A DNA stretch of 57,018 bases from Chiloscyllium plagiosum (lineage: Eukaryota), in assembly GCF_004010195.1 (NCBI RefSeq), contig NC_057753.1:8972806-9029823 (forward strand), given 5' to 3'. Of the stretch, positions 2,853-48,477 are shown piece after piece. Numbering within the stretch: the first letter of the stretch is position 1; every line of letters starts with the position of its first letter. Below the pieces are notes generated by a model. That model ran no database searches. It had not been told where the DNA came from and saw only the letters and a list, made by a program, of their open reading frames with translations. Both the position numbers and the translations under genes were made by a program.

Positions 2853-2925
2853 GAGCTTGTGGCGCAACAGTAGCGCGTCTGACTCCAGCATCAGAAAGTT
2901 GCGTGTTCAAATCACGTCAAGCTTA
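2853..2925 (+). tRNA. tRNA-Trp(CCA) gene or pseudogene with 8-nt anticodon loop
   Basis: GAGCTTG TG GCGC AACAGTA GCGC G TCTGA CTCCAGCA TCAGA AAGTT GCGTG TTCAAAT CACGT CAAGCTT A; matches vertebrate tRNA-Trp; all four stems pair; extra C after position 37; G18>A. Confidence 0.85.
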
Positions 2926-16338: not shown

Positions 16339-16420
16339 GGGCTCGTCGGGGATTTGAACCCGGTATCTCTCGCATGCCCACGCACCCGAAGGAAGAATCA
16401 TACCCCTAGACCAACGAGCC
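16339..16420 (-). tRNA. tRNA-Pro(CGG) with 10-nt intron-like insertion at 37/38 (16375-16384); probable pseudogene
   Basis: GGCTCGTTGGTCTAGGGGTATGATTCTTCCTTCGGG [TGCGTGGGCA] TGCGAGAGATACCGGGTTCAAATCCCCGACGAGCCC; one mismatch each in the anticodon stem and T stem. Confidence 0.85.
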
Positions 16421-18497: not shown

Positions 18498-18587
18498 GGC
18501 TTGTTGGTCTCGGCGTATGATTCTCGCTTCGGGTCTTTTCCTGCACCGACTTGCGAGAGGTCCCGTGTTCAAATCCCACATGCGCCC
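18498..18587 (+). tRNA. tRNA-Pro(CGG) pseudogene with 18-nt intron at 37/38 (18534-18551)
   Basis: GGCTTGTTGGTCTCGGCGTATGATTCTCGCTTCGGG [TCTTTTCCTGCACCGACT] TGCGAGAGGTCCCGTGTTCAAATCCCACATGCGCCC; anticodon stem perfect; T stem and acceptor stem damaged. Confidence 0.85.
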
Positions 18588-19245: not shown

Positions 19246-20432
19246 CTCTCATCCAAGAGAATGATACGAATGGAGACACTCGTTTACTTCCTATGTGGAA
19301 CCAACAGAGCAAAGGTTCCATGGCTTCCATCTGCGCTGTGATACATGTTGTGATTCAGAGTGAAATCACAGTTCGACCAACAGAAAATGGGAATTTCGAC
19401 AAAGTTTATATTTACACAGCCTCCACACGTGCGCGCAACAGCATATGACACGTGCGCGCAACAACATCTTTGACATCATTCCCGAACATGCATGCCACGC
19501 ACCAGAGGAAAAGCTGAATTCTTCTCTGGATGTGCTTTGGTGCCTTGTCGTAACGTGATGCAGCGGGAGAGTGCTGGGACATAATCCAGCAGTTGATGGA
19601 GCATAACCATCCCCTGCAATTCGCTTAATGTCACCTTTCGCAACTTTCCCGTACGACGGTGCTCTGCTCTTTCCCTTGCCTTTCCCTTACCTTGCTTCCC
19701 AAAACTTCGGGTATCTGAACTAAATATGTCATTTCGATACACGAGTCAAATTTACACAGTTGCGGTGGCACGCTTGTGGAGCTGTGAGTTGTCTTGTCCT
19801 GGTCTCTGTCGGTGTGTTCTGATCTCAAGTGTGAAACCTCTGCTCTGAGATGGCAATGAACTGAAGTTGAAAGACGTGACTTGCTGTTTATGTCTACTTC
19901 CCGCAGTAAAGAAACTAACGCCCGTGTAATAAAAGACTTCCTGCAGGATTGCTGTGTCAAGACAAATTCTGAACACCAAGCAGGCTGCACAAAAATGTAC
20001 TCATACCAATTTACCTGAGGGAAGAGTCTCCGGTGTCCATTTCTCTCTGTCCCGACAGCACAGCGTCTTTCTATCTCTCCGTTAACAGGACCTTTGACAC
20101 AAGTTCAAAGTTGCCCATTTCTTACGCATTACTGTAACTGACGTCTCCTACCCCAAGTGATAGTGAGAGAGAGAGAGCAGAAGAGCGAATGGACTCTGTC
20201 TTCCACCAGCACAACTTGCAAGTAGAAACAAAATGTTTCAATTATCCACCAGTGGAGAGAGCCCGGTCCCTGGGGACGGGACAAACAGCAGCGTCCTGGG
20301 AGCAGGGAGACAGATTGAGAAGCAGATGTTCTTGAAACTCTTTGCTGCTTGCAATTCTGGGAGCAGTGTACAATGCATTCCGCACTGAGCAAGTTTCAGC
20401 TGTTTCAGGAGTTCACTGCACCCTTGGCAGGT

Positions 20433-20524
20433 TGTTCATTGTTCTCGGGGAATGATTCCACCTTTGGGTCTTCTAGCATAAGCAGACGTGGGAGAGTTAC
20501 CGGGTATCAATCCCAGACGAGCCT
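20433..20524 (+). tRNA. tRNA-Pro(TGG) pseudogene with 20-nt intron at 37/38 (20469-20488)
   Basis: TGTTCATTGTTCTCGGGGAATGATTCCACCTTTGGG [TCTTCTAGCATAAGCAGACG] TGGGAGAGTTACCGGGTATCAATCCCAGACGAGCCT; inverted paralog of 50229-50319. Confidence 0.75.
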
Positions 20525-21259: not shown

Positions 21260-21331
21260 AGAGCCTGATACGATTTGAACGCGCAACCTTCGGATCAGGA
21301 GTCAAACGTGCTTACGTTGCGCCACAAGCTC
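21260..21331 (-). tRNA. tRNA-Trp-derived pseudogene, anticodon CCT
   Basis: GAGCTTGTGGCGCAACGTAAGCACGTTTGA CTCCTGA TCCGAAGGTTGCGCGTTCAAATCGTATCAGGCTCT; D, anticodon and T stems mismatched. Confidence 0.8.
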
Positions 21332-44375: not shown

Positions 44376-44465
44376 GGGCTCGTCCGGGATTTGTACCCGG
44401 GATCTCTCACAACCCCACGTATCAGAAAACCCGAAGCGAGAATCATACCCCTAGACCAACGAGCC
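44376..44465 (-). tRNA. tRNA-Pro(CGG) with 18-nt intron at 37/38 (44412-44429); best-preserved copy
   Basis: GGCTCGTTGGTCTAGGGGTATGATTCTCGCTTCGGG [TTTTCTGATACGTGGGGT] TGTGAGAGATCCCGGGTACAAATCCCGGACGAGCCC; exons differ from the vertebrate Pro-CGG consensus (recalled) at about 3 positions, including T55>A in the B box. Confidence 0.9.
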
Positions 44466-48405: not shown

Positions 48406-48477
48406 GACATTGTGGCGCAACGGTAGCGCGTCTCACTCCCGATCAGACCGTAACTTGTTCGAATCACGTCAGGCTCA
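48406..48477 (+). tRNA. tRNA-Trp-derived pseudogene, anticodon CCC
   Basis: GACATTGTGGCGCAACGGTAGCGCGTCTCA CTCCCGA TCAGACCGTAACTTGTTCGAATCACGTCAGGCTCA; acceptor, anticodon and T stems mismatched. Confidence 0.8.

Follow-up and report, generated by a model that had tools for sequence, protein, structure and literature searches.

The window, by which we mean the whole 57,018-nucleotide stretch of Chiloscyllium plagiosum DNA that we analysed, holds five tRNA-Pro loci, all with an insert directly after G37 (10, 18, 20, 18 and 20 nt in coordinate order) and with the anticodons CGG, CGG, TGG, CGG and TGG in the same order. The loci, their coordinates and the insert lengths are those of the original prediction, and the canonical 37/38 position that it assigned to the inserts is supported by alignment, in that mismatches to an intronless gene are fewest when the insert is placed after G37. 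The tRNA-related features of the window are as follows:

44376..44465, minus strand: tRNA-Pro(CGG) with an 18-nt intron; likely a pseudogene; exon changes C40T, G46A and T55A
44412..44429, minus strand: intron of the 44376 gene, 18 nt, between G37 and T38, read from the sequence
16339..16420, minus strand: tRNA-Pro(CGG) with a 10-nt intron (16375–16384); five exon changes; duplicate of the 44376 segment
18498..18587, plus strand: Pro gene of the AGG-type subfamily that reads CGG, intron 18534–18551; eight exon changes, including A14C and G18C
20433..20524, plus strand: degenerate tRNA-Pro(TGG) with a 20-nt intron (20469–20488); 17 exon changes
50229..50319, minus strand: degenerate tRNA-Pro(TGG) with a 20-nt intron (50265–50284); 1-nt deletion in the D-loop
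43896..52575: colinear copy of a multi-tRNA unit (Pro-CGG, Trp-like, Pro-TGG with 20-nt intron, initiator-Met relic), 84–94% to contig C99637 (L086)
48406..48477 (plus), 2853–2925 (plus) and 21260–21331 (minus): tRNA-Trp-derived genes of the unit, from Rfam and unit comparison
52519..52574 (minus) and 19560–19617 (plus): initiator-Met tRNA relics of the unit, from unit comparison

Exon changes were scored against the genome's own perfect intronless tRNA-Pro gene (L031), a comparison in which the T55A change previously reported for the 44376 gene proved correct. That gene has neither the intact B box nor the nearby terminator expected of a Pol III gene: besides T55A, no T4 follows the gene before +155, and another T4 opens the intron. 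Its sequence suggests that it is probably a pseudogene, and an intact mature tRNA body is absent from all five window copies. At 16339, the insert is identical to what remains of the 18-nt intron typical of CGG copies once its first 8 nt are removed, and the locus lies in a duplicated version of the 44376 segment; we therefore attribute the 10-nt length to an 8-nt deletion rather than to a separate intron. The 18498 locus has the flanks and intron of the AGG subfamily (86.7% over 661 nt to an AGG locus), and the 50229 copy, which did not parse without gaps, belongs to a subfamily with a 1-nt D-loop deletion and other lesions in common.

With introns allowed and the default score, ARAGORN called only 44376–44465 among the five loci, as Pro-CGG i(37,18). 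Rfam detected none of the five in the window, where only the three Trp-like genes reached the gathering score and five weaker matches were dismissed as below the cut-off. The window's list of open reading frames held nothing relevant to the intron-bearing Pro genes. Across loci L001–L070, ARAGORN often set the intron at position 34 and miscalled the family as Ala, Thr, Val, Leu or Ile.

Contig C99637 carries Pro-CGG, Trp, Pro-TGG and initiator-Met genes, and the window is pieced together from segments that have been duplicated. Five independent insertions were accordingly rejected in favour of one intron family present in scrambled copies of the segmental unit, and an assembly artefact was rejected given the many contigs and subfamilies involved. 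We also rejected a tRNA-derived SINE, since the copies are clustered, share kilobase flanks and other tRNA genes, and have no tail. In the unit tRNA-Trp (the three window copies and L086:4138–4210) the acceptor stem still pairs, and presumably it differs from the usual vertebrate tRNA-Trp by two double changes; this gene may represent a distinct group of cluster tRNAs that was once under selection. A Ser relic lies at 55531–55592, and damaged Asn and Ser genes lie near other copies of the unit (L072, L073, L081), indicating that the amplified segments hold more isotypes.

Genome-wide census of tRNA-Pro genes

With the 44376 gene as query, the 3.56-Gb genome gave 233 first-look candidates, 40 of which were scored. 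A 28-nt motif from the 5′ exon had 51 exact genomic matches and its reversed control had none, so the insert family is not a product of chance. All 51 places were fetched: 8 continue without an intron and 43 with intron-type sequence, nine of the latter being read by eye because truncation, a deletion, N or a SINE blocked gap-free parsing. One of the 51 matches is an internal duplication in L051, where at L051:771–890 a 30-nt tandem duplication of the stretch from the D-arm to the anticodon mimics a 48-nt intron. Searches with flanking sequence gave at least 191, at least 241, at least 51 and at least 241 candidates, which overlap, and 30 loci were fetched from each. Over all fetched loci, gap-free parsing yielded 104 distinct copies, namely 8 intronless, 91 with an 18-nt intron and 5 with other lengths; the 96 intron-bearing copies were counted without most of those with 20-nt introns, which the parser lost. 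The genome holds about 100 or more intron-bearing tRNA-Pro genes, most of them apparently broken. They span all three anticodons, AGG, CGG and TGG. The earlier claim of an intron amplified across two isoacceptors therefore stands as to the amplified family and fails as to the number, AGG being a third isoacceptor.

The prediction that the window copies are damaged and that intact genes lie elsewhere was borne out. Five intron-bearing TGG loci in four distinct contexts (L016, L017, L023, L052 and L064) have perfect exons, and two further genes, L019 (TGG) and L014 (CGG, fused to a SINE), have G46A as their sole exon change. L064 has a T4 at +4; in most intact TGG copies the first T4 comes only at +35. 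Many copies sit on small unplaced contigs, and intact arrays may, we infer, be collapsed in the assembly. A search of sequencing runs with a TGG gene and its flanks listed no RNA run; one run of unspecified type contained 0.22 of the 41 query words and 19 others 0.07–0.10, values that bear neither on expression nor on other species.

Intronless tRNA-Pro genes number eight, of which three AGG, one CGG and three TGG genes are perfect and one TGG gene is damaged. None lies within the window, as had been noted, but the genome elsewhere has them. The flanks of the seven perfect genes are unrelated, and a T-run follows at +3 or +4; because these genes cover all three anticodons, the lineage can do without the Pro intron and splicing is not obligatory. 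A46 occurs in both CGG and TGG genes that bear the intron, and none of the eight intronless genes has it. The junction motif designed for CGG or TGG genes without an intron had five genomic matches, none of which was a spliced A46 retrocopy.

Intron anatomy and the anticodon–intron helix

Eukaryotic tRNA introns are described as lying at 37/38, forming a short helix with bases of the anticodon loop and setting a purine at intron position −3 against a pyrimidine at 32 (PMC10275265, PMC8479045, PMC6614914, PMC10485636); the 32:−3 pair is required for 3′ cleavage (PMC8479045). The 18–20-nt length and the position of the Pro introns match this description (PMC10275265, in part). U32 stands opposite a purine at −3 in 85 of the 92 distinct copies, and also in all five window copies. 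Position −3 switches between the purines A and G, G occupies −4 in 89 of 91 copies, and −1 and −2 vary freely. Base 34 and intron −5 are matched as U:A in 32 of the 92 copies, C:G in 29, A:C in 11 and U:G in 5, with other combinations in 15; this covariation amounts to about two deep events, not dozens. In the 44376 gene, using the register of the helix alignment, the pairs are −3 G with U32, −4 G with U33, −5 G with C34 and −6 U with G35.

The helix alignment comprised 30 copies chosen to span the subfamilies (29 distinct rows), and in it the four-pair helix between 32–35 and −3 to −6 was paired in 92.2% of cells, with cloverleaf pairing at 93.7%. Sliding the register by one to three columns reduced helix pairing to 18–66%, and shuffling gave 87%, with 0 of 500 shuffles as high as the real alignment; the rows are related, which inflates the shuffle test, and these values are not to be read as probabilities. 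Minimum-free-energy folds of L016 and L019 contain the anticodon–intron helix and a 3-nt bulge at the 3′ splice site. The full helix appeared in only 2–3 of 11 such folds, and folding was rejected as structural proof because z-scores were weak even for an intronless gene. A search of the genome with the PF01974 profile (the TSEN catalytic domain) matched none of five candidates, a result that is uninformative for a gene split into exons.

By these features the Pro insert looks like a real TSEN-type intron. We weighed the alternative that it was never spliced, having entered a tRNA-derived repeat dead on arrival and been carried along by duplication while gene conversion homogenised the exons. 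Conversion donors do exist among the intronless genes, and because the intron apparently originated once, its position and pairing could be a single lucky event. Such an insertion would leave unexplained why −5 varies in step with the wobble base through three states and why −3 switches between A and G without ceasing to be a purine, and conversion from the intronless genes would erase the A46 that none of them carries. We consider this alternative very unlikely.

The AGG-type subfamily departs from Watson–Crick pairing at the wobble position: −5 is C in 21 of the 23 copies with an 18-nt intron, so that the 34:−5 pair is A:C. C pairs with inosine, not adenosine. Human I34 is formed on tRNA precursors, according to the available part of one study (PMC4446420). 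It is a speculation from one event that A34 in the AGG class would be edited to inosine before splicing. In the same 23 copies (among L119–L148), base 34 is A in 14, C in 6, T in 2 and G in 1, and the flanks are 92–100% alike, which looks like recurrent anticodon switching or conversion.

The human intron-bearing families named in the available text of two papers are Tyr-GUA, Ile-UAU, Arg-UCU and Leu-CAA, with no Pro among them (PMC10275265, PMC8479045). Like the human TSEN introns, the shark introns are short, lie at 37/38, oppose a pyrimidine at 32 with a purine at −3 and vary in sequence, and like human Arg-UCU and Leu-CAA the family mixes intron-bearing and intronless members. Unlike the human families, it concerns Pro, covers three anticodons including one with A34, and has intron-bearing copies that far outnumber the intronless ones, sit in an amplified segment and are mostly pseudogenes; its splicing is a prediction. 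Budding yeast has a eukaryotic tRNA-Pro with an intron, in that all 10 genes for tRNA-Pro(UGG) carry one (PMC4090602, in part); that family is fungal, and we liken the two with no claim of homology. The same source, as far as its text was available, describes lineage-specific intron gains in yeasts, such as that of Lachancea tRNA-Ala(UGC), and the origin of Leu-CAG through an anticodon switch. The shark family resembles these gains in placing an intron on an isotype that is intronless in relatives and in its probable spread through switches of base 34, and differs from them in its vertebrate host and in the intact intronless set with identical exons alongside it.

We found no description of an intron-bearing tRNA-Pro in a vertebrate in the literature, although GtRNAdb or subscription papers may hold one; the available parts of PMC8450103 and PMC4033280 contain nothing further on Pro. 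Abundant intron-containing tRNA loci have been reported in shark genomes (Squalomix preprint, 10.1101/2025.06.08.657570, in part), from bulk tRNAscan-SE counts that likely capture the same phenomenon; its main text, as available, gives no isotype, structure or pseudogene fraction, and its figure 3A or supplements may list Pro. On its sequence features, this TSEN-type intron structure on an isotype outside the human list is a real family.

Decay, retroposition and the role of the intron-bearing genes

When the best cluster-borne copies (L045, L006, L016, L019 and L064) are compared across the AGG, CGG and TGG subfamilies, exons are 94–99% alike, whereas introns are 39–50% identical (up to 61% with other representatives) and 60-nt downstream flanks 60–77% alike; the upstream value for L016 was spoiled by N. 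Exons so much more alike than introns or flanks suggest that exon sequence was preserved in source genes that carried the intron, although conversion by intronless donors could also account for the similarity. Within subfamilies the picture is one of decay. Among 30 TGG copies picked by their flanks, non-CpG divergence from the majority was 70/1620 (4.3%) in exons and 310/9670 (3.2%) in the far flanks. Intact copies numbered 4 of these 30, 0 of the 26 parsed CGG copies and 0 of the 25 parsed AGG-type copies (30 fetched in both cases), and G18C is present in 26 of 27 AGG-type copies. The lesions common to the 20-nt subfamily indicate that it was amplified after it had broken. Because decay within subfamilies proceeds at the rate of the flanks and broken copies were amplified, most of the amplification was passenger duplication of the multi-tRNA segment. 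Four of the 30 TGG copies (L093, L103, L115 and L116) lack the same 13 nt of the variable loop and T-stem, a deletion flanked by two short motifs that resemble each other.

This decay bears on a second alternative, in which the intron was once spliced in an ancestor, all tRNA-Pro now comes from the intronless genes, and the intact intron-bearing copies are young duplicates. The neutral rate in the TGG subfamily, the empty CGG and AGG-type samples, the amplification of an already broken 20-nt subfamily and the distant first T4 of most intact TGG copies all speak for it. Yet the 4 of 30 intact TGG copies, two of them near-identical, compare with about one expected at 5% per site (an estimate), the SINE-fused L014 differs from an intronless gene by G46A alone, and, if intact arrays on the unplaced contigs are collapsed, intact copies would be undercounted. 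We regard such a relic as rather unlikely, though it is the alternative that we take most seriously.

Ten intron-class copies lack the flanks of the unit; all ten keep the whole intron or part of it, and most also retain a trailer or leader. One of them is L036, outside the window, a solitary unspliced gene with an 18-nt trailer between exact 12-nt direct repeats, one at the gene start and the other 18 nt behind the gene; similarity to the unit stops at +21 to +23. With its solitary position, its target-site duplication and the lack of an A-tail, it has the properties of the tailless tRNA retropseudogenes described in the available part of PMC2912911. In L014, L021, L022, L037, L040 and L042, an unspliced Pro gene in sense orientation is followed by a short trailer and then by a complete SINE, with junctions that vary from copy to copy, and L039 and L048 are fused four bases into the intron; because introns and junctions differ, the fusion events are independent. 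The intronless L032 has the same gene–SINE layout. Around the SINE fusions, a search for target-site duplications found only 7–9-nt repeats at chance level. The SINE beside several Pro copies resembles what we take to be the shark HE1 family.

Fusions of tRNA with retroelements also occur in primates, where tRNA–LINE chimeras are mostly antisense halves (bioRxiv 10.1101/2025.02.02.635956, in part); unlike these, the shark copies are unspliced precursors with a trailer, in sense orientation before a SINE. In L039 (G000:C5, about 121742500), a tRNA-Trp with its trailer and a T-run precedes the Pro 5′ exon and 4 nt of intron, followed by a LINE-like 3′ end. In L038 (G000:C4, about 128436300), the 5′ exon and whole intron are joined to the SINE at most 2 nt from the 3′ splice site, and this single case could record a half-spliced intermediate. 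We did not count it as a fossil of TSEN cleavage, since it is one of three internal junctions and would arise by chance in about 16% of cases (an estimate).

From these retroposed Pol III precursors we infer that the family was, in the past, transcribed in the germ line or early embryo. The retrocopies carry 1–9 exon changes and may be old, which leaves room for the relic reading. Retention of the intron in all ten insertions, together with an intronless set that covers the needs of translation, would also suit a third alternative, in which the unspliced Pol III RNA serves as a small-RNA source or chromatin element rather than supplying tRNA-Pro. Retrocopies that mostly have a trailer or leader are primary transcripts, however, and say little about later splicing, and a spliced, charged tRNA would require just such strict conservation of exons and helix as is seen across subfamilies. 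This is the least probable of the explanations considered here.

We favour, with somewhat better than even confidence, the explanation that the insert is a true TSEN-type intron and that the genes form a second, cluster-borne tRNA-Pro class, made up mostly of broken copies, with a few intact members whose transcription and splicing would continue today. That the intron family was functional in its source genes, whether it is still active or is a relic, is highly probable. A single intron origin may have been followed by anticodon switches with a matching change at −5. The retrocopies suggest transcription by Pol III in the germ line or early embryo; TSEN would cut at both sites and RTCB would ligate the exons, and the product would be a tRNA of the intronless type or its A46 version. 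Bulk amplification of the segment would have come later, regardless of the integrity of the genes it carried.

Part of the reported shark excess of intron-containing tRNA loci is likely this Pro family, which consists largely of pseudogenes, and automated counts would be distorted where annotation tools such as ARAGORN miscall it. With an intron on three isoacceptors and identical exons in its intronless counterparts, the family offers a natural paired test of how tRNA introns originate and what they are for, and because A46 marks the spliced product, splicing can be read directly from RNA. The intron-bearing Pro genes reside in clusters with variant neighbouring tRNAs; Xenopus tRNA genes of the oocyte or embryo type likewise lie in tandem clusters and are expressed at restricted stages. 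It is a tentative and rather doubtful extension that sharks may have a second supply of tRNA-Pro for the germ line or embryo, drawn from amplified clusters and dependent on splicing through an intron gained within vertebrates across three anticodons, with a helix that co-evolved with the wobble base and, in the AGG class, I34 editing that would precede splicing and could license it.
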